Of a stretch of 64,000 nucleotides of DNA, positions 3,228 through 60,457 are shown one piece after another (the first letter of the stretch is position 1; each line of letters begins with the position of its first letter). The stretch comes from a virus: IMG/VR virus record IMGVR_UViG_3300028392_000030, positions 1 through 64,000 of that record, one strand, 5' to 3'. The notes under the pieces are model-generated. The model searched no databases, had not been told where the DNA came from, and saw only the letters and a program-made list of their open reading frames with translations. Position numbers and translations under genes: made by a program.

Positions 3228-4372
3228 AAGCTAATGAATTTATAACTGAAAAGTGGAGTCAAAAATACAAAAGCAGTATCAACTGTAGCCACCCCAAAGG
3301 TTTCAGCCAACGGGCGCACTGTGCTGGTAAGAAAAAGCACAACGAATCGGTTGAGATGGAAATGGTGTGTGAAGACTGTGGCATGTGTGAAACACACGGC
3401 AATGTCATGGAAATCAAGAAAGGTCAAAAAGACGCAAATGGATATACCCGTTGTTGGCCAGGTAAACACGCAGAAGGTACCAAGAAGGGCAAAAATGGTG
3501 GACCAGTTCGTAACTGTGTGCCCAATGAAAGCATTAACGAAGGTCAACAACTAAGTGTTCAACAGTTGGCACAAATTAGTGATGCAGCATTGGATGCAGC
3601 ATATGGTTATGGTCGTAGTAGTCCAGGCAATACATTTGGTTGGCAGGCCAACTTAAAATCTGCGTCCTTTGCCAAACAAATGATTGATCGTGGTGTTACA
3701 GATATTGAGGCAATTAGCGATGCCATCCACAAAGGTTGGAATGTAACAGCACAGGCGTTTGTTAAAAATCCACAGATGTTTGATGATTCCAAAACAATGG
3801 CTCCAGAAAAACTACAAGCCAAGATAGCACAGCGTCAGAAACTAATGACTCAACAGTATGCTCAATTGCCCGAAGATGAAAAAGAAAAAGATCGTGTGGT
3901 TGCTCGTGCTATGCTACAAGCTATCGGGGGTCAACAAGAATTGTCTGAAGAGTTTGATCTAATAGAAAGCATTATAACTGATCTTGCTGATCGCAATGGT
4001 GTAGATGCAGAAGCAATCTGGGAAGATTTAGAAAGTTTGTCAGATGATGAGTTGTATGTGTTTGCTGTGACACAGGAACCTGCCAAAGAAAATCTATCAG
4101 AAACCGAAGCATGGCAAAAAGCCAACAATCGCGACAAAACAGATGGCATGAGTCGTAAGGCTGTTAAAACATATCGCAGAGAACACCCAGGATCAAAACT
4201 ACAAACTGCTGTGACTACCAAGCCTTCAAAGTTGAAGAAGGGTAGTAAAGCATCAAAGCGCCGCAAGAGTTATTGTAGTCGCAGTCGTGGTCAAATGAAA
4301 ATGCACAACATCAGCTGTGCTAAAACTCCAGACAAGGCCATATGTAAAGCACGTCGTAGATGGAATTGCTAA
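3224..4372 (+). CDS. Modular internal-head-type protein with RyR-like domain and basic Cys-rich modules
   Basis: N-terminus MKANEFITE resembles T4 IP targeting peptide; HKGW...YAQLPEDEKEKDR RyR-like motif; very basic C-terminus ending RRRWNC. Confidence 0.65.
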   Translation: MKANEFITEKWSQKYKSSINCSHPKGFSQRAHCAGKKKHNESVEMEMVCEDCGMCETHGNVMEIKKGQKDANGYTRCWPGKHAEGTKKGKNGGPVRNCVPNESINEGQQLSVQQLAQISDAALDAAYGYGRSSPGNTFGWQANLKSASFAKQMIDRGVTDIEAISDAIHKGWNVTAQAFVKNPQMFDDSKTMAPEKLQAKIAQRQKLMTQQYAQLPEDEKEKDRVVARAMLQAIGGQQELSEEFDLIESIITDLADRNGVDAEAIWEDLESLSDDELYVFAVTQEPAKENLSETEAWQKANNRDKTDGMSRKAVKTYRREHPGSKLQTAVTTKPSKLKKGSKASKRRKSYCSRSRGQMKMHNISCAKTPDKAICKARRRWNC

Positions 4373-5299
4373 ATGAGACTACGCGAATTTGCACCCGCAG
4401 GTGGTGACGATAGACAGCCCGACGAAGAAGAAATCCTACGTCAGCTGGCCGCACAATGGTGGCAAGGTGACGAAGATCCACGTGCCGAACGCACACTGGC
4501 GTCAATGGGTTGGGAAATTGGCCAAGACGAAGGATACGACAACGGTGGTGCGTTTGTTGTGCGAGCCGGCGACATCAACGGCAATAGTTTTATCAGTTGG
4601 CCTGCTGAGGAGTTAGAAGAACTAGAAGAAGGATGGAAAAGTGCCCTAGGTGGTGCTGCACTGGCTGGAGCAATGGCCCTAGGTGGTGGCGCAGCAAATG
4701 CAAAAATGACTGCACCTGTTGCACAAGCACCAGCCGCAACAACTGCTCAATCAACAGCAGCTGCACCGGTACGACCAGCTGCCTTAACACAACAAGCGGC
4801 ACCTGCACAACAATCTTCACTAGTAGATCAATTAAAAGCAGTTGCCGTGGCCAGCGGAATCAAAGGTACCGAATTGGCACAGTTTTTGGCACAATGTGCC
4901 CATGAAAGTGCAAACTTTGCCAGTATGGAAGAACGTGGTAGTCCAACTTACTTTACTAAAAAGTACGAACAGAACCCACGCAAGGCACGGATCCTAGGCA
5001 ACAAGGTCAAAGGTGATGGTGAACGTTTCAAAGGACGTGGGTTTATACAATTGACCGGGCGTGACAATTATACTAGAGCTGGTGCTGCATTAGGATTGCC
5101 ATTAGCACAACAACCAGATTTGGCTGCTAGACCCGACGTTGCTGCCAAAGTGGCAGTATGGTATTGGCAAAATCGTGTTGCTACAAAAATAAAAGATTTC
5201 GGCAACACCGCGGCTGTAACTAAAACTATCAATCCTGCCGCAAAAGGCCTACAGTCACGCAAAGACCAATTTAAATCTTATCAAGTAGCACAACGATGA
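4373..5299 (+). CDS. GH19 (chitinase/lysozyme-like) hydrolase with N-terminal head-targeting module
   Basis: AQFLAQCAHES, FKGRGFIQLTGRDNY, AVWYW, TKTIN GH19 motifs. Confidence 0.85.
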   Translation: MRLREFAPAGGDDRQPDEEEILRQLAAQWWQGDEDPRAERTLASMGWEIGQDEGYDNGGAFVVRAGDINGNSFISWPAEELEELEEGWKSALGGAALAGAMALGGGAANAKMTAPVAQAPAATTAQSTAAAPVRPAALTQQAAPAQQSSLVDQLKAVAVASGIKGTELAQFLAQCAHESANFASMEERGSPTYFTKKYEQNPRKARILGNKVKGDGERFKGRGFIQLTGRDNYTRAGAALGLPLAQQPDLAARPDVAAKVAVWYWQNRVATKIKDFGNTAAVTKTINPAAKGLQSRKDQFKSYQVAQR

Positions 5300-48132: not shown

Positions 48133-48207
48133 GGGCCAGTAGCTTAATGGTAAAGCAACCGACTCATAATCGGTCGAGTCTTGGTTCAATTCCAAGCTGG
48201 CCCACCA
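48133..48207 (+). tRNA. tRNA-Ile2 or elongator Met (CAT)
   Basis: G1-C72, ACCGA-CTCATAA-TCGGT, GGTTCAA T-loop, CCA. Confidence 0.88.
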
Positions 48208-49186: not shown

Positions 49187-49663
49187 TTAGACCCTGCGGA
49201 CCATAAATCCACCATTGGTTACACTACCTCTCAAACAAGCATTTCCAAAGTTGTTAGGATTATAGCCTCGGTCTACACACCACTGGCGTAATCCTTCAAC
49301 TGTTTCCACAGTCCCATCTGGGTGAGTTATTTCGTATAGTTTGCCCTGCCAAGTTTTGCCTCTATTGGCACATACTACTTTCATCTTCTTACTGGCTAAT
49401 TCTCGTTGTATCGGATCCTTCCAACGAAGGTTAGACCTTGCGGCACCTTTTCTACCACCTTCGATCATTGACTGTTTGGCAGCATCAAAGTTAGCATCAA
49501 GTTTGCTTAATCCTTGCCAGGCAACATAATCTTGCCAGTTACCGTGTTGTTCGTATAACAAACGATGTGCTTCAGCATGTTGGTCTACAGTGAGATCAAC
49601 AAGATTACTTGGATCATCTGTGCCTCCTAAATATTTTGGGACAATGTGGTGTTTGTGTAGCAT
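49187..49663 (-). CDS. HNH homing endonuclease
   Basis: HKHHIVPKYLGGTDDPSNLVDLTVDQHAEAH; opposite strand; TAAATA upstream. Confidence 0.85.
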   Translation of the reverse strand: MLHKHHIVPKYLGGTDDPSNLVDLTVDQHAEAHRLLYEQHGNWQDYVAWQGLSKLDANFDAAKQSMIEGGRKGAARSNLRWKDPIQRELASKKMKVVCANRGKTWQGKLYEITHPDGTVETVEGLRQWCVDRGYNPNNFGNACLRGSVTNGGFMVRRV

Positions 49664-49694
49664 AATATTATTTAGTCGAAACCACAGTAAATGG

Positions 49695-49723
49695 TTGACA
49701 AGATTCGACAACTATGCTATACT
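49695..49723 (+). promoter_or_regulatory. Sigma70-type promoter
   Basis: TTGACA-17-TATACT with extended TG. Confidence 0.75.
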
Positions 49724-49798
49724 GTTAGCATATTGATATTATTTCGATATATTTTTAATCCGCCCTTACTGCTAGGGTATTAACCAAAGGAAATTATT

Positions 49799-50122
49799 AT
49801 GGCAAGAAAACACCTATATACTTGGAACAATGGCGAAGACAAAGAGCTGTTTGAGTCTTTGAAACTGATATTAGGGCCCGTGAAAAATTGGAAAGGACAA
49901 ACTTATAAAAGAACTCTTTCGTTTTTAGCGGAAACCAAATATGGAAATTCTAACACAGACATTGGAGCACTTGAAATGAGAGTTGCTTTCTTAACTAGTA
50001 AACAAAAGGCATCTTATTATAGAACTCGTGGCAGAGAAAATGTATTCAAACAAGTTGTAGTTGGTGCTGTGGCGTCGGGTGTAGCAAGTTATAAGGACCT
50101 AGCGCCAAGATTAAATGGGTAA
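49799..50122 (+). CDS. Hypothetical basic protein
   Basis: AAGGA SD; 107 aa. Confidence 0.6.
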   Translation: MARKHLYTWNNGEDKELFESLKLILGPVKNWKGQTYKRTLSFLAETKYGNSNTDIGALEMRVAFLTSKQKASYYRTRGRENVFKQVVVGAVASGVASYKDLAPRLNG

Positions 50123-50140
50123 ATAAAAGTATTGCTGTAA

Positions 50141-50451
50141 AGCCCGTAAGGGAAGAAGCAAAGAGAAAAGTGTTCTGGACCCGGGTTCGACTCCCGGCAT
50201 CTCCACCTAAGTGTATGGGGTATATTTAGGTGGGGATGACTTGGTTTTCGACAGGGCAAAGAGTAACAGAGTGGACAGCACGGTAGGCGATGACCGTAAA
50301 TCAAGCAAATCAAGTAAATGCAAAAGCATCTACAGGCGAAGTAACTGTTTCTGGTAAGAACGTCAAGTTCTCTGCTCGCACAGTGAAAGCCGAATCTTTC
50401 GCAGTTTAATCGCCGCGATAGGGCAGGAAATGCCTCGTAACAGAAACTACC
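50141..50451 (+). ncRNA. ssrA: Circularly permuted (two-piece) tmRNA
   Basis: T-arm and CATCTCCA (to 50205) precede GGGGATG (50232); G3-U70 pair; hairpin intervening segment; tag frame 50320-50409; outer ends approximate. Confidence 0.85.
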
Positions 50452-50454
50452 AGA

Positions 50455-50477
50455 ACCCGCTTCGGCGGGTCTCTTTT
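50455..50477 (+). terminator. Intrinsic terminator
   Basis: ACCCGC-TTCG-GCGGGT then CTCTTTT. Confidence 0.8.
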
Positions 50478-50522
50478 CGACTGTTTGAGTGGATAAAAAT
50501 TACTGTGTATCAGTAAAACCAC

Positions 50523-50528
50523 TAAATA
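50523..50528 (+). promoter_or_regulatory. Late-type promoter TAAATA
   Basis: TAAATA upstream of porin SD. Confidence 0.5.
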
Positions 50529-50570
50529 ATATGTTGGGCACACGTCCACATTCTTATAAGGAAAAACTAA

Positions 50571-51119
50571 ATGAAGAAAATCTTCGCAATCTTGTCTTTG
50601 GCTGTATCAGGTTTGGCCGTTGCTGGCGACAGCGTGACCCTAGAAAGTCAACACATCAACAACGTTACTGGAAACGCACAACAGGTATATCTGTTAGGTG
50701 TTAAGAAAGAAATCAATCAAAACTTTGCCGGTGACGTGCTTATCAGTAATGCTGTAACCGACAACACCAATGCCTTGAGCACACGCATCGAAACAGGTGG
50801 CACTGTTACTGCACCGTTGTATGGTATTGTAAACGGCTACACTCGTGTTGCATTGGGACAAAAGTATAGCAATACTGCCAACTTTACATACTACTCAATC
50901 GAGCCTGGAGTTAGTGTTCCATTTGGTCCGGTGACAGCCAAAGTGGGTTGGCGCACTCGTACTGCTGTTGACAGCGGCAACAACGACCAAACACACACCA
51001 TGCGCTATACATTGGCTTATGCAGTGACTAAAGTTGATACTGTTGCTGTAAGATATGATCGTGTCAATGGCGATAACGATCAAAAGATCTGGACCGTTAA
51101 TTACACACGCGGTTTCTAA
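50571..51119 (+). CDS. Outer-membrane beta-barrel (OmpL/KdgM-like porin)
   Basis: Signal peptide, alternating amphipathic strands, C-terminal NYTRGF. Confidence 0.65.
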   Translation: MKKIFAILSLAVSGLAVAGDSVTLESQHINNVTGNAQQVYLLGVKKEINQNFAGDVLISNAVTDNTNALSTRIETGGTVTAPLYGIVNGYTRVALGQKYSNTANFTYYSIEPGVSVPFGPVTAKVGWRTRTAVDSGNNDQTHTMRYTLAYAVTKVDTVAVRYDRVNGDNDQKIWTVNYTRGF

Positions 51120-51135
51120 AATTTAAAAATCTAAC

Positions 51136-51159
51136 AAAAGGCTCTTCGGAGCCTTTTTT
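51136..51159 (+). terminator. Intrinsic terminator (possibly bidirectional)
   Basis: AAAAGGCTC-TTCG-GAGCCTTTTTT. Confidence 0.85.
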
Positions 51160-51181
51160 AATGATCAACGGAGTTAGCAGA

Positions 51182-51904
51182 ATGGCAAAATTAATAGTAT
51201 GCGGATGTAGTTTGAGTGCTGATAGCATTGACAGGCCAGGAACAGGCTATGGCCATCAAACAGCCAAGCGGTTGGGTTGGGACGTAGAGATACTGGCACG
51301 GCAAGGATGCAGTAACGGTGGTATCCGTATACAAATAGATGAAGCACTACGCCAACAGCCTGATTTTGTCATTGTGGCACCAACATTTTGTGATCGTATA
51401 GAGATTCCTGCTGCCACTGACTGTGGCTACGATAAAACAGCCGGTATTGATAATGTTAACTATGGCACAAATCCATATCGCATGATTTGTGAAAATATAA
51501 CTACGTTGGTTGGGAATTATAACAATCCATATCGCACAGGTGAACTAGATAAAAATACACAGGAGGCGATTCGACAATACATTAACCACATATACGATGT
51601 CAATTGGAAGCGACAGCAAGATGAATGGATCATGCGCGATGGCATTATGCAGTTGTTCTATTCTGGTATACCATTTTTGATTATCGCCGGCGAACTTTGG
51701 AATACCGGAAATATACGCCAAGCTATACCTAAAGTAGTAGACGATCGATACTTGACCCTTGACTACCAAGAAACACCTAATTATGCAATAACCAATTGGC
51801 CGTTTGAAAGCACAGACCCTGGATACCACGGTAGTCCGGCTGGTCAGGAATATTTGGCAGAAATCTATGCCGACAAGATACGCAATTGGCAATATGCCAG
51901 TTGA
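51182..51904 (+). CDS. SGNH/GDSL-like hydrolase
   Basis: CGCSLS, QGCSN, GYHGS. Confidence 0.6.
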   Translation: MAKLIVCGCSLSADSIDRPGTGYGHQTAKRLGWDVEILARQGCSNGGIRIQIDEALRQQPDFVIVAPTFCDRIEIPAATDCGYDKTAGIDNVNYGTNPYRMICENITTLVGNYNNPYRTGELDKNTQEAIRQYINHIYDVNWKRQQDEWIMRDGIMQLFYSGIPFLIIAGELWNTGNIRQAIPKVVDDRYLTLDYQETPNYAITNWPFESTDPGYHGSPAGQEYLAEIYADKIRNWQYAS

Positions 51905-51929
51905 CAAATCATAAATAACCATGTATAAT
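51901..51929 (+). promoter_or_regulatory. Sigma70-type promoter with embedded TAAATA (leaderless start)
   Basis: TTGACA-17-TATAAT consensus. Confidence 0.85.
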
Positions 51930-51935
51930 ACTACT

Positions 51936-52040
51936 ATGAAAACTAATAAATTACATCCTTCTTTAGGAAATAACCCAGTAATTGGACAAGCCGATTTATG
52001 GGTCTATGGCTGTGAAGATCGTAGAGTGGGTTTTGAATAG
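51936..52040 (+). CDS. Putative attenuator leader peptide (34 aa)
   Basis: MKTNKLHPSLGNNPVIGQADLWVYGCEDRRVGFE read by hand; starts at predicted +1. Confidence 0.55.
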   Translation: MKTNKLHPSLGNNPVIGQADLWVYGCEDRRVGFE

Positions 52041-52065
52041 CAGTAAGTTTTAACTTTTATTCAAC

Positions 52066-52096
52066 AACCCCGAAACTGAACATTCCGGGGTTTTTT
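52066..52096 (+). terminator. Intrinsic terminator/attenuator
   Basis: AACCCCG...CGGGG then T6. Confidence 0.75.
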
Positions 52097-52110
52097 ATTG
52101 GAAGAAAAAT

Positions 52111-52269
52111 ATGGAAAATAAAATACAAGATAAAATTTTTTTAGCACCCGAAGAGCGTGTGGCCTTAATTGAACGCAAGCTCGAACGTGCCCGTGTGCAA
52201 GTTGACGCAATGATAGCTCAAATGGAAGCAGTAAAAAAAGTAAAGAACAATGAACAAACTAATTCGTGA
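52111..52269 (+). CDS. Small coiled-coil protein (52 aa)
   Basis: MENKIQDKIFLAPEERVALIERKLER..., read by hand. Confidence 0.5.
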   Translation: MENKIQDKIFLAPEERVALIERKLERARVQVDAMIAQMEAVKKVKNNEQTNS

Positions 52270-52555
52270 TGGCAAGGTGGCTGTGTTGGTATCACCCGGT
52301 TATGGGGCTGGTTGGTACAGCTGGCACGGTAATGAGGAATTGCTTTACGATCCCAGTATTGCGGAATGGGTCGAACAACAAGCGTTTGATAAAGTTCTTA
52401 CCTATATGGAATTAAAGCATCCAGATGTTTATTGCGGAGGATTAGAAGACTTAGAGGTCAATTGGGTCTCAACCGGAGATCGTTTCCGTATTGATGAACA
52501 CGACGGAGCAGAAAGTTTGGTGCTGGAAAAAAACGAATATTGGCTAACTGCTTGA
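52250..52555 (+). CDS. Hypothetical phage protein
   Basis: VAVLVSPGYGAGWYSW...IDEHDGAE. Confidence 0.75.
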   Translation: MNKLIRDGKVAVLVSPGYGAGWYSWHGNEELLYDPSIAEWVEQQAFDKVLTYMELKHPDVYCGGLEDLEVNWVSTGDRFRIDEHDGAESLVLEKNEYWLTA

Positions 52556-52586
52556 TGGTAATACAAAAGTATTACAAACAATTTGG

Positions 52587-52615
52587 TTGACCCAAAATAG
52601 CTATTCGGCTATAAT
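52587..52615 (+). promoter_or_regulatory. Sigma70-type promoter
   Basis: TTGACC-17-TATAAT. Confidence 0.75.
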
Positions 52616-52642
52616 AGAGTAACAGTTAGAAGAAAGGAGGGC

Positions 52643-53248
52643 ATGATGCCTAGTGTATTTTTAGTAAGCGACACGCATTTCGGACATACCGGCGTCTGCC
52701 GCTTCACCCGTAATGACGGTGTTACAAAGTTAAGGCCGTGGGATAGTCCTGAAGAAATGGACGAAGCCATGGTCAAGGCCTGGAACGAACGTGTTAAGCC
52801 CACAGACAAGGTCTACCATTTGGGTGACGTTGTGATCAATCGTAAGGCCTTGGGTATTATGCATAGATTGAACGGTGATAAGGTGTTGATCCGTGGTAAT
52901 CATGACATCTTCAAAGATGCCGACTATCGTGAACATTTTCGTGAACTTCGTGCATACCATGTGATGAATGGTATGATCTTGAGTCATATTCCTGTTCACG
53001 CAGAAAGTCTTGGTCGTTTTGGTGTTAACATTCACGGACACTTGCATGCCAACCGTGTCAAGCGGGCTCGTGGTGTTGATGCTAGAACCGGAGAAGTTTT
53101 ATACAGTGATGAGAACGACGTTCGTTATCATTGTGTCTGTGTAGAGCAAACTGATTTTGCACCCATCTTGTTTGAAGACGTGATCAAGCGAATTGAAGCA
53201 GAAGGTGGTGCAGTAGGTTTTAGGAACGGAAATGGTCCTACGATGTAG
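52643..53248 (+). CDS. Calcineurin-like metallophosphoesterase
   Basis: SDTHFGH, LGD, GNHD, SH, HGHLH. Confidence 0.9.
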   Translation: MMPSVFLVSDTHFGHTGVCRFTRNDGVTKLRPWDSPEEMDEAMVKAWNERVKPTDKVYHLGDVVINRKALGIMHRLNGDKVLIRGNHDIFKDADYREHFRELRAYHVMNGMILSHIPVHAESLGRFGVNIHGHLHANRVKRARGVDARTGEVLYSDENDVRYHCVCVEQTDFAPILFEDVIKRIEAEGGAVGFRNGNGPTM

Positions 53249-53253
53249 TTTTT

Positions 53254-53327
53254 GTATCCCTGATGTAATGGCAGCATAGCGGTCTCCAAAACCGTTCGTC
53301 GGAGTTCGAGTCTCTGGGGGTATGCCA
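53254..53327 (+). tRNA. tRNA-Trp(CCA)
   Basis: GCGGT-CTCCAAA-ACCGT; cloverleaf; CCA. Confidence 0.9.
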
Positions 53328-53335
53328 AAAATAGT

Positions 53336-53364
53336 TTGACAAGATATAGGAGTTAGTGTAAAAT
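53336..53364 (+). promoter_or_regulatory. Sigma70-type promoter for tRNA array
   Basis: TTGACA-17-TAAAAT. Confidence 0.7.
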
Positions 53365-53375
53365 ACAAATTCAAT

Positions 53376-53449
53376 CGCGGATTAGAGAAACGGTATCTCG
53401 GGAGTCTCATAAGCTCCAGTTGGTGGTTCGATTCCATCATCCGCAACCA
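53376..53449 (+). tRNA. tRNA-fMet-like (CAT)
   Basis: C1:A72 mismatch; GGAGT-CTCATAA-GCTCC. Confidence 0.85.
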
Positions 53450-53463
53450 ATCGAAAGGTAAAC

Positions 53464-53667
53464 ATGGACATTGATCAAGCGGCAGTATTTTTAGCAGGTA
53501 GTATTTTAACAGCACTGGGATTTATTATTATTGTAATAGCGGCAGTTGTTATTAATAATATCATTCACAAATATTGGAAAAGTTTTGGTTGGAATTTTTT
53601 TCCAGCTTATGTGCAAAAAGAAGAAAAAGAAGTGGTTTACGAAGAACCCAAGTTGGATAAGAAATAA
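53464..53667 (+). CDS. Small membrane protein
   Basis: One long hydrophobic helix. Confidence 0.6.
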   Translation: MDIDQAAVFLAGSILTALGFIIIVIAAVVINNIIHKYWKSFGWNFFPAYVQKEEKEVVYEEPKLDKK

Positions 53668-53669
53668 GT

Positions 53670-53746
53670 CGGAGTGTAGCACAGCCTGGTAGTGCGCCTG
53701 GTTTGGGACCAGGAGGTCCGAGGTTCGATCCCTCGTACTCCGACCA
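53670..53746 (+). tRNA. tRNA-Pro(TGG)
   Basis: CCTGG-TTTGGGA-CCAGG; CCA. Confidence 0.92.
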
Positions 53747-53753
53747 AGAGTTT

Positions 53754-53828
53754 GGCTTCATAGTATAATGGTTAGTACGGTGGCTTGTCACGCCACTAAT
53801 AGGAGTTCGATTCTCCTTGAAGCCGCCA
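53754..53828 (+). tRNA. tRNA-Asp(GTC)
   Basis: GTGGC-TTGTCAC-GCCAC; CCA. Confidence 0.92.
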
Positions 53829-54234
53829 AGTTAGGGTGCCTGAACATAAATGCATAAGACAGTTCAGGTTAAGTGGTATCCCGTTATGGGGCCAGCCCAC
53901 CTAACGTGCCAACTGTCATTGGCTAGTCTGACCCAGACGATGAGAAGTGGTATGACAACCACGGGTGGTTCTGAAACGAAAAGTTTCACACAGAAGCCAT
54001 GATAGAACATGGATGTATGTGCGGTCCAACCTAACCGGCGCTAGCAATGCGAGAACGGTCCCTGTCGGGAAGCGGGTGGAAGGTGTAAGTGACGAACAGA
54101 CTAGTTAGGGCAACTTGACGAAATTTCTGATACACTATAATTACCGCCGGGGGACGCAGAGCATATATGAACACATTCGGTTGGCCCATAGCCAACAGAG
54201 ACATCAGAAACGTGAGTGTGTTCTTATATGTTTT
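53829..54234 (+). ncRNA. Candidate large structured ncRNA (GOLLD/ROOL-like context)
   Basis: No convincing ORF; many hairpins and nested long-range helices between tRNA-Asp and tRNA-Tyr. Confidence 0.55.
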
Positions 54235-54320
54235 GGAGATGTAGGAAAATTGGTAACCCCAGTGGACTGTAAATCCGCCGCCTTCAGGCACTGTTGGTTC
54301 GACTCCAGCCGTCTCCACCA
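54235..54320 (+). tRNA. tRNA-Tyr(GTA)
   Basis: GTGGA-CTGTAAA-TCCGC; long variable arm; CCA. Confidence 0.92.
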
Positions 54321-54325
54321 AACAT

Positions 54326-54401
54326 GCTCGGTTCGTCTATCGGCTAGGACACTGCCCTTTCACGGCAGGAAGGAGGGGTTCGATTCCCCCACCGAGTACC
54401 A
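54326..54401 (+). tRNA. tRNA-Glu(TTC)
   Basis: CTGCC-CTTTCAC-GGCAG; CCA. Confidence 0.92.
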
Positions 54402-54408
54402 GTCAGTC

Positions 54409-54492
54409 GCGATTGTGGAGAAATGGTATACTCAGCAGACTTAAAATCTGCCGTCAAAAGACATGCTGGTTCGAGTCCAGCCAGTCGCACCA
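54409..54492 (+). tRNA. tRNA-Leu(TAA)
   Basis: GCAGA-CTTAAAA-TCTGC; variable arm; CCA. Confidence 0.92.
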
Positions 54493-54511
54493 ATACAATG
54501 GTACTTTAACG

Positions 54512-54517
54512 TAAATA
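54512..54517 (+). promoter_or_regulatory. Late-type promoter TAAATA
   Basis: 7 nt before ATG 54524. Confidence 0.55.
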
Positions 54518-54523
54518 CATAAT

Positions 54524-55501
54524 ATGCCAAAAATACTTAATTTCCAATCCGAGTTAGGCCCATTTGCAATAGAATTACTAGACAATTTATTTGTTAATCA
54601 ATGGCTAGAACATTTCTTAAAGATAGTTAACAAATATCATCTAACTGGTAGATCTGTGTCGTGGCCATTTGTTACAGACAGTATCAAGTCTACTGACTGT
54701 ATTGAAAATCTAATGAAATCAATAGAGCTGGCTAACAGTTTAACTTATATAAGTCCGTTTCCTGAAACAGTATCCAAAAATGAACTTGCACTTTTAAATT
54801 TGGATACACAAAAAATACTGAACAGACTTCATCGTTACTGTGTCGCTGCAGCTGATACGCGAAATCGCTGGGTGCGGGACCAAGAACCTACATTTGACTG
54901 GGTGCCTTATGAAGTTGAACAATTCAATTATACAGTAGACCTAATTAATCAAAATATACATCGTTTGGAACTGTATGTGCATACACCGCATAAAGATAAA
55001 TTTCGTAAGCCAGGATGGCATACCACTGAACTTATTTTTAATGCCTCGAAATATGATGATGTCACTGTGTATCATGATGATGTTGATGTCATCATCGACG
55101 ATGCCATGTTTGAATATTTACGGTTATCTGGATATGATGTTTGGATCAAAAAAGATCTATTAGGAAAAGATTTTATCACAGGGTTTGCCGATCATGACGA
55201 TCCTGGGCAAATAGACATTCGTCCACCAACTATGTATTCAGGAGGTATTCAAATCGACAATAACAACGGCAAGGAAACTATATATCAAAGTTCAGAATTT
55301 ATAAATTGGCTGGGCAAATACCCCAACAACTTTCATGGAAATTATCCATTGGGCAATGTTGTTAGTAACAAACAAAACTCACTTGCTAAACAGATACAAT
55401 TTGTTGGAATAAGTAATAGCTCACAGGTGTTTACAGACACAATAATGTCTGTTGCCCCGGTGCTTGATAAATTGTCACAAGGCCAATCAAATGAAAATTA
55501 A
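54524..55501 (+). CDS. Hypothetical protein
   Basis: 325-aa AT-rich ORF inside tRNA array. Confidence 0.7.
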   Translation: MPKILNFQSELGPFAIELLDNLFVNQWLEHFLKIVNKYHLTGRSVSWPFVTDSIKSTDCIENLMKSIELANSLTYISPFPETVSKNELALLNLDTQKILNRLHRYCVAAADTRNRWVRDQEPTFDWVPYEVEQFNYTVDLINQNIHRLELYVHTPHKDKFRKPGWHTTELIFNASKYDDVTVYHDDVDVIIDDAMFEYLRLSGYDVWIKKDLLGKDFITGFADHDDPGQIDIRPPTMYSGGIQIDNNNGKETIYQSSEFINWLGKYPNNFHGNYPLGNVVSNKQNSLAKQIQFVGISNSSQVFTDTIMSVAPVLDKLSQGQSNEN

Positions 55502-56156
55502 AAATTATATAGTAAGATCTCTATACAAAATCAACAATGGAGTAGAAATTTATCCCAGTGGACAACCGTCTATAACATCTACAGATTATCGTGTATATAA
55601 AAAAATGCACGACTTAACTCTTCCTACATTGCAAAAACACATAGGTGGCGAATGGGAATTGGTATTGTTTGAAGGCGAAGTGGACTATGCTCAAGAAATG
55701 CATAGGGATGTTTTTATGAGAACTTATCAATTATGGTCCGAGCAACCATGCAATATACTTTTTGTTGACTTAGATATCATGGCATTTGGATCGATTGATT
55801 TTTTTGATCAATATAAAAATTTCGCAATGTTTACCGAAATAAGAGAGCAATTTTACAATTGCGGATTGCGTTATTTTCCTCATACTATGGATCCAGCTGT
55901 TTGGGCTGTCGGGTTAGAATTATATAAAGAGTGGGGCAATGATACCGAATGGGATAGAGATCAATTGGTTTATTCTAAAATGATATGCAGCCAACCGGAT
56001 TTTGTTTTTAAACAAGTGCCTATAAATTCTCAATTTGACGGAATTCGGTATGATCCTGAGTATGCCAATCAATACAAACTGTTACATTTTCACAGTTCAA
56101 AAGGCCCCAAACCGGTCTATGCATTGATGAAAAAATATGCCGAGCAATCGGTTTGA
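55491..56156 (+). CDS. Nucleotide-diphospho-sugar transferase-like protein
   Basis: FVDLD DxD, NCGLRYFP, WDRDQ, LHFHSS; paralogue of 39326. Confidence 0.55.
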   Translation: MKIKNYIVRSLYKINNGVEIYPSGQPSITSTDYRVYKKMHDLTLPTLQKHIGGEWELVLFEGEVDYAQEMHRDVFMRTYQLWSEQPCNILFVDLDIMAFGSIDFFDQYKNFAMFTEIREQFYNCGLRYFPHTMDPAVWAVGLELYKEWGNDTEWDRDQLVYSKMICSQPDFVFKQVPINSQFDGIRYDPEYANQYKLLHFHSSKGPKPVYALMKKYAEQSV

Positions 56157-56162
56157 CAATAT

Positions 56163-56236
56163 GCGGGGTTAGTTTAATGGTAAAACGAGATCCTTCCAAG
56201 TTCAAGTCAGGAGTTCGATTCTCCTACTCCGCTCCA
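56163..56236 (+). tRNA. tRNA-Gly(TCC), imperfect anticodon stem
   Basis: GCGGGGT acceptor, CTTCCAA loop, CCA; two stem mismatches. Confidence 0.8.
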
Positions 56237-56250
56237 ACCCAAGGTAATTT

Positions 56251-56502
56251 ATGTTAGAATATGCGGTTACATTCTTTGCAGTATTTGCTACTGACTTGAT
56301 TTATGTGTATTTTGTCAAGTCGATCCAGGACAACCGACCCTTGATGGCCGCTTGGTGGAGTATGGCAGTGACTTTCACTGCCAGTGTAGCAGTGATCAAT
56401 TATACTGCTGATCACTGGGCCTTGATTCCGGCCTTGGCCGGTGCCTACTGTGGCACCTTGTTTGGCATGTGGATCAAGCGAAAGATCAACGTAGGACCTT
56501 AG
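56251..56502 (+). CDS. Small multi-pass membrane protein
   Basis: Three hydrophobic segments; stop codon lies inside tRNA-Val 5' end. Confidence 0.65.
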   Translation: MLEYAVTFFAVFATDLIYVYFVKSIQDNRPLMAAWWSMAVTFTASVAVINYTADHWALIPALAGAYCGTLFGMWIKRKINVGP

Positions 56503-56568
56503 CTCAGTTGGTAGAGTGTCTGCCTTACAAGCAGAATGTCGTCAGTTCGAACCTGGCAGGTCCTACCA
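56493..56568 (+). tRNA. tRNA-Val(TAC)
   Basis: TCTGC-CTTACAA-GCAGA; CCA. Confidence 0.9.
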
Positions 56569-56575
56569 GTATTAT

Positions 56576-56653
56576 GCAACGGTGGCAGAGTGGCCCAATG
56601 CAACGGATTGCAAATCCGTAAAACCGCTGGTTCAAATCCAGCCCGTTGCTCCA
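56576..56653 (+). tRNA. tRNA-Cys(GCA)
   Basis: ACGGA-TTGCAAA-TCCGT; U73; CCA. Confidence 0.9.
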
Positions 56654-57657
56654 GTTTCGACAGATCGTAAGTATTCAGTAAGAGGATGCATCCAGTCAGT
56701 TGATAAAAAATGTTGTTGATTGTGTGTGAGTACCGACTGCAACTTTTGCATCACTGTCTCGGGATCCAACCGACACAAGAGTTCAACTTGCTGCCATGCC
56801 TGGGCAAAACGTTCAGTCTCATCATCAATAGTATCATAATTTTCGTCAATCACTGAGTTAAAAGTTTGAAAGCCTAAGCTGCGCAAATTACGTAAAAAAT
56901 ACTGGCCGCTGAACACTATAAAAGGTCTACCAGCTACAATGGGTTTGGCAGTTTTTTCAGTAAATTGACTGTAATAATTAGTGCATACCGTTTCAGCCAC
57001 TATACTATAAAAAGTTTGATTGTAGATATCAACCGGTAACAAGTTGCTGATTGCAACAAAATTTCCGTGCGTGTCCATGCGAACTCGATGTGTAGTTGCT
57101 TGAGCACCATTGATATTCTGTGACCATATGCCTTGACCAATTTGGTCTTTGAAATAGTTATACACAATATGATCTTGACAGCCACTGGATTTATACAGTT
57201 GTTCAATTTGATCTCTGTGTGATTTTTTTGTGCCCAGTAAACAATCAAAGCGTTTCGGCCGATTTGATTCAATATGCAGTTGTGACTGTAACTTTTTTGC
57301 CCAAGCGTCGGTCGCGTAGTAATTGTTGGATTGACCAAACCAACTGATCAATGGAACAACATTGGTAGTAGAAAAATTTGCAATCACAGGAGAAAAAATA
57401 ATAATTTTAGAGCTACTGTGTGCCTGAACAAACTGATAAAAATCTCCGGTAGGTTCATCAACTATCACTATCAGCAATCGAGTTTTATCTAACAATTGCT
57501 CAATCACCTTGGCATGTGCTGAATAGTTACTGTTGTAAAACGTAATTGAAATCAAATCACATGCATTGGAAATTTGGTCAATGTGTTGATAGTTTTTATA
57601 TACGTCTGAGGTCGATTCAACCAACGAGAAACAAAAATTGTCTAAAAAAAACTTCAT
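56632..57657 (-). CDS. GT10-like putative glycosyltransferase
   Basis: SIVAET...FTEKTAKPIVAGRPFIVF...GFQTF...IDENYD. Confidence 0.55.
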   Translation of the reverse strand: MKFFLDNFCFSLVESTSDVYKNYQHIDQISNACDLISITFYNSNYSAHAKVIEQLLDKTRLLIVIVDEPTGDFYQFVQAHSSSKIIIFSPVIANFSTTNVVPLISWFGQSNNYYATDAWAKKLQSQLHIESNRPKRFDCLLGTKKSHRDQIEQLYKSSGCQDHIVYNYFKDQIGQGIWSQNINGAQATTHRVRMDTHGNFVAISNLLPVDIYNQTFYSIVAETVCTNYYSQFTEKTAKPIVAGRPFIVFSGQYFLRNLRSLGFQTFNSVIDENYDTIDDETERFAQAWQQVELLCRLDPETVMQKLQSVLTHNQQHFLSTDWMHPLTEYLRSVETGATGWI

Positions 57658-57661
57658 TTTA

Positions 57662-58360
57662 TTATAGTTTTGAAAGAAACATATCTGCAATGTGACGATT
57701 GGTAATTTCACCATAGTGTTGTAAATCTCTGGCTCGATCTGTCATTGTGATAGCAGATGCTTCTTGTTGAATGTATTTGATGCCGCGATCACTGCACAGT
57801 TGTTTAATGGCCAGCGTATTTTTTAAATAATTCATACTGCTGTTGGTATCATTACTGAGCCAACTTCTTGCAAAAGAGTCTACCATTGGAAAACCAATTG
57901 GCCAACAGCTGAGATCATAAAGTTGGTCTTCGTCAATGTGTAGTTCAAGTCTGGTTCTCTCTGTAGATAAAAAAATTACCAAGTCCGGTTTTAATTGTTC
58001 TATCCAATGGTGTGCCAAACGAAAAGCTGTGTCATTGGATGCACCCCCTACTCCAAGATTGTAGTTTTTGAGTTTCAACGCGGTGCTGACTCGATGTGCC
58101 CAGGTAGACTCAACAGGCAATCCCATACCCAGTGTGTGACTACAGCCAATGAACATCACACCAGAGCCAGCTGAATCAAATTCATCTGCTCGAAATCCAT
58201 GACTGTTAAATTTATATGTGATTGGTCGATTGATCCAATTGTATTGATCCAATTGTGTTCGATTTCGAACTAAATTTTTTTGGTATAACTCTTCCGAATC
58301 GGTTCCGTGCCACAGTATTTCTTGATTGGCCAAGGATGAATTAGAGTGTCGAGGTGTCAT
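57662..58360 (-). CDS. SGNH/GDSL-like hydrolase
   Basis: IGCSHT, GGASN, DLQHYG; start after TATAAATA. Confidence 0.6.
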   Translation of the reverse strand: MTPRHSNSSLANQEILWHGTDSEELYQKNLVRNRTQLDQYNWINRPITYKFNSHGFRADEFDSAGSGVMFIGCSHTLGMGLPVESTWAHRVSTALKLKNYNLGVGGASNDTAFRLAHHWIEQLKPDLVIFLSTERTRLELHIDEDQLYDLSCWPIGFPMVDSFARSWLSNDTNSSMNYLKNTLAIKQLCSDRGIKYIQQEASAITMTDRARDLQHYGEITNRHIADMFLSKL

Positions 58361-58364
58361 TGAA

Positions 58365-58372
58365 TATTTATA
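58365..58372 (-). promoter_or_regulatory. T4-type late promoter
   Basis: TATAAATA on minus strand. Confidence 0.7.
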
Positions 58373-58377
58373 GGGGC

Positions 58378-58406
58378 TTGACCAGCAACGTTTTTTCGTA
58401 TATAAT
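58378..58406 (+). promoter_or_regulatory. Sigma70-type promoter for rpoZ-like gene
   Basis: TTGACC-17-TATAAT. Confidence 0.75.
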
Positions 58407-58429
58407 ACACTTTTACAACAGGAGATATT

Positions 58430-58651
58430 ATGAAACCAGTTACTCTCAGTCGCGGCACCCAAATTGACCTTGAAAAATGTGTTGGTTTAGCTGACTCACG
58501 TTATGACATGGTCATTGCTGTGTCGCAACGCCTGCGTGAACTCAAACGCCGAGCCAGAGAAACCGGTGCGTATGTTACTGCTGTTGATGCCTTGTTGGAA
58601 ATGCAAGAAGGAAAAATTGATATGATTCGATACATGTCCAAAGTGAAATAA
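58430..58651 (+). CDS. rpoZ: RNA polymerase omega subunit homologue
   Basis: SRYDMVIAVSQRLREL...VDALLEMQEGKI matches omega core NR(F/Y).LV..A..RAR...AL.EI..G; AGGAG SD. Confidence 0.65.
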   Translation: MKPVTLSRGTQIDLEKCVGLADSRYDMVIAVSQRLRELKRRARETGAYVTAVDALLEMQEGKIDMIRYMSKVK

Positions 58652-58653
58652 TG

Positions 58654-59085
58654 TCACTTGTAGATGTAGTTGATGGTGTCGCGGTTTTCTCTCAATTCTC
58701 GAGCGCCGTTTTTCAAATGAAAGCGTCGAGCCATTTCGGTCTTAGGACTCAATGTCACGTAGGTTTGAATCTCTGGAAACTCTGATTCAATTGACCGTTG
58801 AGCTGCTACAATAAGGTCTCGACCGGCCCCGGCTGTGTAACTCCAGATAGTATAAAATACCGCGGTTGTTGCACCACCAATTATCACAACCAAATCATCA
58901 ACTGCTGAAGGAATTGTTTCTAAGAATTTAACACAGGTAACGGCTAATGTTTGATCACCATCCTTTAACATGTAAATTCGACTGTTTGAGTTTACACGTT
59001 CCGACAAGGGTATCTCTGGGCGCACCGGATCGTCCTTGATAAGGCTAGCAAGATCGTCTGATATGGTGGTGATTGTGTGTAACAT
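58654..59085 (-). CDS. GNAT-fold-like protein
   Basis: AVFYTIWS..AGAGRDLI...VTLSP...RRFHLKNGA. Confidence 0.5.
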   Translation of the reverse strand: MLHTITTISDDLASLIKDDPVRPEIPLSERVNSNSRIYMLKDGDQTLAVTCVKFLETIPSAVDDLVVIIGGATTAVFYTIWSYTAGAGRDLIVAAQRSIESEFPEIQTYVTLSPKTEMARRFHLKNGARELRENRDTINYIYK

Positions 59086-59146
59086 TATATACGCCGTTTA
59101 TGTTTTATAAATTTATTTATCAAATTATGTGTGACAGTAAAATTAC

Positions 59147-59236
59147 GGAGAGTTGGGTGAGCGGCTGAAACCAACGGTCTACTAAACCGTCATAGTGGCA
59201 ACACTATCGTGGGTTCGAATCCCACACTCTCCGCCA
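59147..59236 (+). tRNA. tRNA-Ser(ACT), unusual A34
   Basis: ACGGT-CTACTAA-ACCGT; long variable arm; G73; CCA. Confidence 0.88.
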
Positions 59237-59239
59237 ATT

Positions 59240-59317
59240 AGGACCTTAGCTCAGTTGGATTAGAGCATGGAGCTTCTACCTCCAGGGTCGTGGGTTCGAA
59301 TCCAGCAGGTCCTACCA
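59240..59317 (+). tRNA. tRNA-Arg(TCT)
   Basis: TGGAG-CTTCTAC-CTCCA; A20-containing D-loop; CCA. Confidence 0.9.
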
Positions 59318-59461
59318 GATAAACCCTATCAGTAAACCTAGACCAAATGCAACTATACCAAGTAAAATCATTATTGTGGCATACCAGCCAGTATGATCGA
59401 TGTAATATTCAGGCTGTTCAAATTTGGTGTGGTATCCTGTGTTGTCATAGTAAATTTTCAT
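59312..59461 (-). CDS. Small membrane protein (49 aa)
   Basis: MKIYYDNTGYHTKFEQPEYYIDHTGWYATIMILLGIVAFGLGLLIGFIW read by hand; TAAATA upstream. Confidence 0.55.
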   Translation of the reverse strand: MKIYYDNTGYHTKFEQPEYYIDHTGWYATIMILLGIVAFGLGLLIGFIW

Positions 59462-59505
59462 TATGATATTTATGGATAGGGTTTGTGACAAATAAGTAGT
59501 AATAC

Positions 59506-59579
59506 GCCCTTTTAGTTAAATGGTATAACAGTTGATTTGTAATCATCAATTGGCAGTTCGATTCTGTCAAGGGGCACCA
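59506..59579 (+). tRNA. tRNA-Thr(TGT)
   Basis: TTTGTAA loop; GCCCTTT/AAGGGGC acceptor; CCA. Confidence 0.88.
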
Positions 59580-59608
59580 AAAATATTTTTATAAAGGAAA
59601 TTATAACA

Positions 59609-60457
59609 GTGAACTCTGTTGTTAAAAACTTAATAGCATCCTACAACGCTATTAAAGACGAGTCGTGGCCCGATTGTGTTAGTTATGCTGAGTTGGAACA
59701 GTTACCAAAACACATCATTGATGAATGCAGAGATGTTCACGGATTTGATTTTTTGATTAATAGAAGCCAATTAAAATTGTTGAATCCATATTATCCAGGT
59801 GTTCCTTTTGAAACGTATCCTGATCTTGACAATAGATTATCTCAACATTTTGATTACATATACGATTCTTATTTCCCATTTTCAATAAGTCCTAGATTTT
59901 TTTACCAAAGCGGTATAAAATTTACCTTAAGAGATACCTACTGGTATATTGATCAATTATATAAATCAAACCCGACATCGGTAATCGATCTAGGTTGCGG
60001 AGAAAATGGGTTTAAAAATTGGTTCCCACACATATTTGGTGTAGATCAAGCTACTAATCCGTGGAGTCAAGCCGATCTCATTGGCGATGTAGATGATAAG
60101 TTTTTTAAAGAACATCAAGGCCGATATGATTGCGGAATGTGTATTCATGCTGTATTTTCTGGTTGGCACCGTTTTACAGATCTTATACATTCAATGATGG
60201 GTTTGGTTAACAATAGTTTTTTCTTTGCTTGTCCAATAATTACTGAAACATTTAACGATTTGCCGCTTGAGTTAAAGTCTAACTTTGATTTAATGATAAC
60301 AACACTTATTGATAGAATTTATAATTCAGGCTATGAAGTAACCCTTTTAGATTTCCCTGACTACTTAACATTAAATTGGGATACAAGTTGGCAAGGTGTA
60401 TCATACCGACGGGCACCCCATTCTAATTTAAGATTCATGTTAAAACATAAGAAGTAA
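59609..60457 (+). CDS. Methyltransferase-like protein
   Basis: VIDLGCG motif I; AAGGA SD with GTG start. Confidence 0.55.
   Translation: MNSVVKNLIASYNAIKDESWPDCVSYAELEQLPKHIIDECRDVHGFDFLINRSQLKLLNPYYPGVPFETYPDLDNRLSQHFDYIYDSYFPFSISPRFFYQSGIKFTLRDTYWYIDQLYKSNPTSVIDLGCGENGFKNWFPHIFGVDQATNPWSQADLIGDVDDKFFKEHQGRYDCGMCIHAVFSGWHRFTDLIHSMMGLVNNSFFFACPIITETFNDLPLELKSNFDLMITTLIDRIYNSGYEVTLLDFPDYLTLNWDTSWQGVSYRRAPHSNLRFMLKHKK

Follow-up and report, generated by a model that had tools for sequence, protein, structure and literature searches.

What could a reading frame of only 34 codons be good for that is placed between a consensus promoter and an intrinsic terminator at the head of the tRNA-gene region of a giant phage? 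We addressed this question for an element at positions 51901–52096 of a 64,000-nucleotide stretch of viral DNA (positions 1 to 64,000 of the IMG/VR record IMGVR_UViG_3300028392_000030; hereafter 'the window'), which is part of a 197-kb IMG/VR contig with an estimated completeness of 57% and derives from a giant T4-like lake phage. What phage tRNA genes are good for has been a matter of debate over 50 years and, to our knowledge, their regulation is almost unexplored. The main ideas on their function are codon compensation on the one hand and an escape from host defences that cleave tRNAs (PMC10264068) on the other. An initial annotation of the window, made from the DNA letters alone, had interpreted the element as a ribosome-controlled attenuator upstream of tRNA genes. 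Our analysis supports this interpretation by an open reading frame (ORF), a co-varying helix, the placement of a stop codon and a near-universal Trp codon, and we conclude that the element is probably a ribosome-mediated (leader-peptide) transcription attenuator heading the phage tRNA-gene region.

Transcription of the element would start at a sigma-70-type promoter on the plus strand (TTGACA-17-TATAAT, 51901–51929), the −35 box (51901–51906) and −10 box (51924–51929) of which match the consensus at 12 of 12 positions. A promoter scan of positions 49500–60000 returned no second site of this quality. The ATG (51936–51938) of the leader ORF MKTNKLHPSLGNNPVIGQADLWVYGCEDRRVGFE (51936–52040, plus strand, 34 codons followed by the TAG stop codon at 52038–52040) is located 6 nt beyond the −10 box, where transcription usually starts, and the mRNA in the window would therefore be leaderless. 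In the ORF listing, the same frame starts earlier, at an upstream ATG within the −10 box. All 20 amino acids are represented among the 34 residues of the leader (p = 0.0008–0.004), and the Trp codon W22 (51999–52001, plus strand) is a candidate regulatory codon. A consensus promoter followed by a leaderless 34-codon ORF ending at 52040 had been claimed by the initial annotation, and both were found in place.

The last codons of the ORF and its stop codon constitute the 5′ strand of a predicted antiterminator (GGGTTTTGAATAG, 52028–52040, plus strand), which forms 13 pairs with the 3′ strand TTATTCAACAACCC (52057–52070, plus strand) when C52065 is bulged out, in a helix that spans the stop codon. 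The 3′ strand overlaps the first three C of the 5′ arm of an intrinsic terminator (52068–52096, plus strand), which is composed of the hairpin CCCCGAAACTGAACATTCCGGGG (52068–52090) with five G-C pairs, in which C52068 to G52072 pair with C52086 to G52090 across a 13-nt loop, and of a T6 tract (52091–52096). As C52068–C52070 belong to both helices, antiterminator and terminator are mutually exclusive. The 13-bp antiterminator overlapping the 5′ arm of the terminator, as described earlier for 52028–52040 and 52057–52070, was thus recovered with three C shared between the two structures. In the minimum-free-energy fold of the 170-nt whole transcript (z = −3.1), the antiterminator is present and the terminator is not, and the antiterminator segment reaches −14.4 kcal/mol versus −7.0 kcal/mol for the terminator hairpin alone. 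The hairpin occurs as a single copy in the window's own genome and is therefore not a generic terminator of this phage.

This arrangement suggests a course of events in which host RNA polymerase would start at the consensus promoter, giving a transcript with its 5′ end at or beside the AUG, and a 70S ribosome would load onto the leaderless 5′ end and translate the 34-codon leader. A ribosome keeping pace would, upon arrival at the stop codon, cover the 5′ strand (52028–52040) with its footprint (about 52023–52050), which would leave the 3′ strand without a partner, allow the terminator stem (52068–72/52086–90) to form and end transcription at the U-tract. Without a ribosome, or with one that lags behind or stalls further upstream, e.g. 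at the Trp codon, which precedes the 5′ strand by 27 nt, the antiterminator would form first; being more stable, it would sequester C52068–C52070 and let the polymerase read into the two small downstream genes d1 and d2 and on toward the tRNA genes. The net logic would be that slow decoding leads to more downstream transcription and, in most relatives, in which the downstream genes are a tRNA array, to negative feedback on tRNA supply. The geometry relies on standard ribosome footprints. Under this assumption, a ribosome at the Trp codon (51999–52001) would end well before 52028, whereas a distance of 24–32 nt between stop codon and hairpin would leave the terminator free; the position of the stop codon inside the 5′ strand (52038–40 within 52028–40) may thus let a terminating ribosome mask this strand yet spare the terminator. 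Taking geometry and fold stability together, naked RNA should therefore read through, while a translated leader should terminate. That termination occurs, which way the switch works and what it senses in the cell are inferred, and general translation speed, Trp-tRNA or depletion of tRNAs by defence systems would be candidates for the signal that is sensed.

Is the layout in the window more than a chance arrangement? A comparison of the region with 50,697 GenBank phage records by megablast and blastn yielded nothing relevant, which is why all comparative data stem from uncultured viral contigs of giant phages. Relatives were gathered from these contigs via flanking proteins, the promoter pattern and the terminator-hairpin pattern; the latter search returned >119 stretches, and 87 distinct hairpin loci passed a U-tract filter. 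A sigma-70-type promoter is located 90–200 nt upstream of the hairpin in 60 of the 87 loci. All but two of these 60 carry an ATG 6–10 nt after the −10 box that opens an ORF of 21–48 codons, and in the same 58 loci the stop codon ends 24–32 nt before the hairpin. The resulting family comprises 58 elements with 56 distinct peptides in about 12 subfamilies. Since the layout recurs in 58 related loci, we regard it as more than chance; conservation in relatives had been named as a check in the initial annotation, and the element was indeed recovered in these 58 uncultured giant-phage loci. The fixed distance of 6–10 nt between −10 box and ATG points towards a leaderless start across the family. Five close relatives become homologous to the window precisely from the −35 box onwards, also where another gene lies upstream, and share identical promoter hexamers together with the spacer block TCATAAATAA (window 51907–51923), while the sequence further upstream differs. 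The same spacer block was additionally observed in promoters of unrelated genes (L087, L089, L092, L094, L097 and L098), and in L097 a tmRNA-like sequence (tag ...APFEIALAA) lies after such a promoter. Its recurrence in other giant-phage contigs suggests an extended early-promoter consensus.

The leaders carry the signature of a coding sequence. Among promoter-bearing relatives, 58 of 59 keep the leader ORF open. Frames 2 and 3 of the leaders contain 3.4 and 2.3 stop codons on average; out of 57 leaders, none has an open frame 2 and 9 have an open frame 3. In 15 independent sequence pairs, differences accumulate at the third codon position (74/73/116 for positions 1/2/3, p = 0.001), and codon changes amount to 60 synonymous versus 118 non-synonymous ones. 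Among the close relatives, a 3-nt in-frame insertion leaves the leader ORF intact, and conserved leader residues show synonymous TGT/TGC and GGA/GGC changes. The leader ORF is thus presumably translated; it is kept open with a weakly constrained peptide, as expected of a leader in comparison to a functional protein. The conserved ORF, its near-universal Trp and motifs shared within subfamilies (e.g. W-x3-C-G/E, NSIPG) could also be explained by a free-standing micro-protein gene, in which the Trp-containing peptide of 33–35 aa would itself be the product, made from its own promoter and terminator in what looks like a monocistronic unit, and in which the hairpin that covers the stop codon would only add stability to the 3′ end or adjust termination, for reasons independent of translation. 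We consider this explanation unlikely. The excess of non-synonymous changes and subfamilies that can barely be aligned with each other speak against selection on a peptide product, and a plain gene would have no reason to maintain a co-varying helix that is stronger than, and competes with, its own terminator, to hold the stop codon 24–32 nt before the hairpin across 12 subfamilies, or to precede tRNA arrays that lack any other promoter.

In support of a leader-peptide attenuator, the antiterminator is conserved as a structure while its sequence changes. When the RNA preceding the 3′ arm of the terminator was folded, the 5′ arm of the terminator was sequestered in 54 of 55 distinct members, the partner being a G-rich strand at or slightly upstream of the stop codon. 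These pre-terminator folds are more stable than dinucleotide shuffles (mean z −2.9; below −2 in 42 of 55) and exceed the stability of the terminator hairpin in 55 of 55 cases (mean −21.1 versus −10.4 kcal/mol). Where the 5′ strand of the antiterminator could be located in relatives, it mostly begins 8–31 nt ahead of the position at which the stop codon ends, and the stop codon itself falls within the antiterminator throughout. The helix sequences diverge across subfamilies (e.g. GGGUUUUGAAUAG, GGGGUCC, GGGGUUCUGAGUAGAA and AGGGUCUUAGUUAA), and in an alignment-free duplex test the duplex of each upstream region with its own 3′ strand reached −15.0 kcal/mol versus −10.6 kcal/mol for the 3′ strands of other members (means), with the same direction in 40 of 40 comparisons (Wilcoxon p = 9e-13) and the observed mean being reached in none of 10,000 permutations. 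A sequence-only MAFFT alignment of 48 sequences gave 72.9% paired cells for the named structure compared to 26–58% with slid partners, and U-A to C-G exchanges were found in this MAFFT-only alignment at two helix positions in 10–12 sequences. RNAalifold predicted no pairs in the antiterminator region of the 48-sequence alignment, as the subfamilies are misaligned in it; because of this failure on the divergent set, we employed the count for the named structure and the alignment-free tests instead. For 18 full-length members of a subfamily, RNAalifold returned the terminator stem as the sole consensus structure. A test for the longest contiguous helix was significant at p ≤ 0.05 in 20 of 37 members, but is crude since bulges break helices.

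Two competing structures that are conserved in front of tRNA genes would also be expected of a switch that works at the level of RNA alone, either riboswitch-like, T-box-like or protein-binding, in which a ligand, an uncharged tRNA or a protein chooses between the structures and the ORF is incidental. The unusually conserved sequence of the terminator loop, AACUNAACA, could mark a binding site. The element (51900–52100) matched no Rfam family, the T-box family RF00230 included, at E-values up to 1; the interior of the antiterminator varies freely, and no conserved region resembles a ligand pocket. In addition, the ORF invariably begins right at the transcript's 5′ end, and its frame is the only one that is open in all members and shows third-position bias, which is difficult to reconcile with an incidental ORF. 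As a separate observation, the hairpin CCCCGGAACTAAAAACTCCGGGG with a T-tract directly follows the end of a protein gene (...GFKLTT*) in >12 contigs, including L099 (3051–3073, minus strand), L103, L104, L133 and L136, where it has neither promoter nor leader ORF. The use of the same hairpin to close protein genes supports its function as a real terminator, and the lineage re-uses one conserved-loop terminator in different contexts. Conservation of the loop is hence not specific for the switch, and an RNA-only mechanism appears quite improbable to us. The same applies, to an even greater degree, to a small regulatory RNA gene, of which a terminated transcript of about 160 nt would act in trans while read-through would be irrelevant. 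Its usual anatomy is given here by a strong promoter, a short structured transcript with the above z-score of −3.1 and an intrinsic terminator, but a conserved single-stranded seed is missing, sequence change outside the helices resembles the drift of an ORF under weak constraint, and the naked RNA favours the antiterminator, such that the terminated product would be a minority in the absence of translation.

Returning to the leader-peptide attenuator, what would its ribosome respond to? Nearly all leaders share a Trp codon, which was found at codon 18–24 in 53 of 56 distinct leaders with a distance of 10 to 25 codons to the stop codon. Even in the shortest case (10 codons), the antiterminator's 5′ strand was calculated to begin about 19 nt after UGG. 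An arrest peptide of the TnaC or SecM type was considered for the conserved Trp and judged unlikely, since arrest at the stop codon through a fixed contact in the tunnel is hardly compatible with a Trp-to-stop distance that varies between 10 and 25 residues. Of 53 leaders, 50 were predicted to form a hairpin that includes the UGG codon (window 51973–52003), yet the same held for 80% of shuffled sequences (mean energy z −0.47); being no better than shuffles, it does not account for conservation of the Trp codon, which we therefore read as a codon-level constraint. Leaders also tend to be diverse in composition, with a mean of 17.6 distinct residues compared to 16.1–16.4 expected and 14 of 56 leaders at p below 0.05. 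Several further leaders hold all 20 amino acids as the window leader does. We rejected a rule that leaders of the family use all amino acids, as it is only partly true: short leaders lacking Trp are significantly less diverse.

The connection to tRNA genes is far tighter across the family than in the window. In all 47 of 47 members for which any downstream tRNA was found, tRNA genes follow on the same strand at a distance of 19–1,766 nt, and in 31 of these 47 no promoter-like site (≥10/12) is located before the first tRNA. The gene for tRNA-Trp is first or second, 180–300 nt past the terminator, in 12 loci of subfamily b, while the three leaders without Trp are followed by tRNA-Gly 19–34 nt after the hairpin and by arrays without tRNA-Trp. 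In the window, the tRNA array identified by ARAGORN and Rfam comprises 13 genes on the plus strand (53254–59579), namely those for Trp (first, at 53254), Met, Pro, Asp, Tyr, Glu, Leu, Gly, Val, Cys, Ser, Arg and Thr; this includes all five (Trp, Val, Tyr, Gly and Cys) which the initial annotation had placed downstream. The link to tRNA genes that it proposed is thus real at the family level, where arrays follow in nearly all members whose contigs extend far enough downstream and leaders are modestly enriched in residues and codons that the arrays serve.

This enrichment was assessed with 12 subfamily representatives. The fraction of leader residues served by the leader's own downstream array was 0.673, compared to 0.607 with permuted arrays (p about 0.001), and the array-served fraction of leaders (0.71) exceeded that of neighbouring long ORFs (0.63; Wilcoxon p = 0.008). 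Considering amino acids with a tRNA in the array, 67.5% of leader codons are read directly by an array anticodon versus 57.1% in background ORFs (p = 0.0045). The strongest case, L178, has 20 of 21 post-Met residues served by an array located 19 nt downstream (0.95 versus 0.60 in the background). We take the match between leaders and arrays as supportive, but short of decisive. It leads to the tentative idea, which we hold with less than even confidence, that the leader is a codon-sampling sensor of the tRNA pool that raises tRNA-gene transcription only when decoding is slow. The peptide may serve as a test sequence rich in codons served by the array, with the Trp codon as a near-universal checkpoint, and triggers may include starvation, a codon usage that differs from that of the host, or the defensive destruction of tRNAs by anticodon nucleases of the host.

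Which genes would be controlled in the window itself? Between the terminator and tRNA-Trp lie d1, d2, an 11/12 promoter and then a phosphoesterase gene, and the switch is predicted to directly gate the two small genes d1 and d2. The first, d1 (52111–52269, plus strand), encodes a helical protein of 52 aa with no assigned function. Searches against Pfam, PHROG, NCBIfam and PDB sequences found no relative of it, while homologues directly follow the terminator in 36 family members. These homologues have a length of 49–62 aa, share the motif L-S/T-x-E-x-x-x-x-L-I-x-x-K-x-x-R-A and are encoded by the first gene behind the attenuator in most subfamilies; d1 may work together with the tRNA region as a partner in function. 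The second gene, d2 (52250–52555, plus strand, 101 aa), comes directly behind d1 at 8 loci belonging to the window's subgroup and matched no family in Pfam, PHROGs, NCBIfam and PDB sequence searches. The internal promoter (TTGACC-17-TATAAT, 52587–52615, plus strand, 11/12), which is kept in the subgroup of the window about +497 after the terminator, precedes the phosphoesterase gene and bypasses the switch. The gene (52643–53248, plus strand) codes for a calcineurin-like metallophosphoesterase of 201 aa (Pfam PF00149, E = 1.7e-5) with weak matches to PDB 1xm7 and to TIGR04123, the latter below the cutoff; searches of PHROGs, NCBIfam and PDB sequences were uninformative on its function. In L086, L134 and L198, a phosphoesterase gene is found between d1 and the first tRNA without a strong intervening promoter. 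A terminator scan found no strong plus-strand terminator between 52100 and 53254 in the window.

Several observations weigh against the interpretation as an attenuator of tRNA genes and have to be set against the evidence above. Family members were collected via the terminator-hairpin pattern, and the terminator is hence shared by construction. The stem and the T6 tract of the terminator proposed in the initial annotation are present in the window, but the hairpin is weak (−7.0 kcal/mol), and a generic terminator scan of the region did not list it. A pause or anti-antiterminator hairpin that involves the Trp codon is not supported, as it performed no better than shuffles, and classical attenuators contain a run of regulatory codons rather than a single Trp codon. 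The enrichment of array-served residues is modest (about 7–10 percentage points) and may be inflated by relatedness, because leaders and arrays are inherited together. In the window, the match of leader codons to the phage tRNAs is not significant (16 of 33 codons versus 41% in the background, p = 0.24); codons 14–30 considered post hoc gave 11 of 17 matches (p = 0.04). The initial annotation had suggested stalling near W22-V-Y-G-C26, for which tRNAs are encoded as stated, but the phage tRNAs for Val and Gly, with the anticodons TAC and TCC, are not the cognate ones for the codons GTC (Val23) and GGC (Gly25). Finally, its own caveat that promoters at 52587 and 53336 can also drive the array is justified: both promoters were found again and can feed the tRNA genes of the window independently of the switch.

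How does the element compare to known systems? With the enterobacterial attenuators trpL, hisL, pheL, leuL and thrL it shares a short leader ORF, a downstream intrinsic terminator, an antiterminator that uses the same 5′ arm and a Trp codon upstream of the antiterminator; in both cases, a ribosome at the stop codon would favour termination, while a stall further upstream would favour read-through. In contrast to these attenuators, the phage mRNA would be leaderless and has no Shine-Dalgarno sequence, one Trp codon takes the place of a run of regulatory codons, and many phage leaders sample most or all amino acids. In the absence of a supported 1:2 hairpin, untranslated phage RNA should read through instead of being super-attenuated, and the genes under control would be phage tRNA genes and small proteins without assigned function rather than biosynthetic enzymes. 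Leaderless short ORFs are known from mycobacteria, in which polycysteine ORFs are reported to act as cysteine-responsive attenuators (bioRxiv 10.1101/834739). As proposed for the phage, a leaderless short ORF heads an operon there, and its translation governs downstream expression; the mycobacterial ORFs are characterised by runs of Cys codons, a bacterial chromosome and cysteine-related genes under their control (10.1101/834739). The phage leader, on the other hand, is of mixed composition with one Trp and one Cys codon and no run, and it is combined with an explicit terminator/antiterminator pair in a phage genome with tRNA genes downstream.

Antibiotic-responsive attenuators such as vmlR of B. 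subtilis (PMC9226507), which have also been surveyed computationally (PMC5314783), follow a similar logic, as an antiterminator can form when a ribosome stalls on a short ORF upstream, such that impaired translation switches genes on. They respond to ribosome-bound drugs and control resistance factors, whereas the phage element gives no hint of a drug and is directed at a tRNA region. With respect to its target, the phage element resembles the trn tRNA operon of Anabaena, which is induced by translational stress through the repressor TrcR (PMC10272220): a dispensable tRNA-gene array would be turned on when translation is compromised. The means are different, since a ribbon-helix-helix DNA-binding repressor is employed in the cyanobacterium and a cis-acting leader peptide with a terminator would be employed in the phage. 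T-box riboswitches likewise report on the tRNA pool by a terminator/antiterminator switch, but these untranslated RNAs of 200–300 nt with Stem I and T-box bulge bind uncharged tRNA directly and control aminoacyl-tRNA synthetase and amino-acid genes, while the phage element matches nothing in Rfam. In a full-text literature search of partial coverage, we did not find a leader-peptide attenuator described for phage tRNA genes.

Further features of the region concern genes for translation-related RNAs. Upstream of the attenuator, the window encodes a tRNA-Met (48133–48207) and a two-piece tmRNA gene (50110–50409), between which an ORF resembling HNH-type homing endonucleases is located on the minus strand (49187–49711; HHIVPKYLGG...DPSNLV...HAEAH). 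In L102, tRNA genes are also found upstream of the attenuator, at 914–1745 and 4358–4430. Given these upstream tRNA and tmRNA genes, the element heads a sub-cluster within a larger translation-RNA region. About 170 nt between the terminator and tRNA-Trp are conserved (L102:4680–4851; GCAAYGGCAACGMGAGCC ... GGGCGGCCTGTAGGAT ... CACACATT..CAGTGTGT) and have equivalents in L113, L117, L123, L128, L139, L142, L196 and L203. This stretch contains no convincing ORF and no promoter and has no Rfam match; it may represent a further stable RNA that is co-transcribed with the tRNAs. Among the tRNA genes of the window, ARAGORN identified a tRNA-Ser with the anticodon ACT, i.e. with A at the wobble position (59147–59236). 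Such A34 tRNAs other than that for Arg are unusual in bacteria and their phages. They were also listed for L049, L051, L054, L093, L147, L153 and L197, and relatives have Phe(AAA) and Leu(AAG).

But, why should a giant phage translate a short peptide before it transcribes genes that help to translate? If the proposed mechanism is true, a switch that couples transcription of tRNA genes to the speed of a test translation would mean that giant phages regulate their tRNA supply by demand, and the element would extend leader-peptide attenuation from amino-acid operons of bacteria to phages, to leaderless transcripts and to operons of non-coding RNAs. The codon-sampling sensor, if true, would establish a loop of cis-acting feedback on tRNA supply of a kind that we did not find described for tRNA genes, and would provide a compact natural sensor of decoding capacity. 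The two main hypotheses on the role of phage tRNA genes, codon compensation and escape from host defences, would then become open to direct tests, as one could ask under which stress the switch opens.

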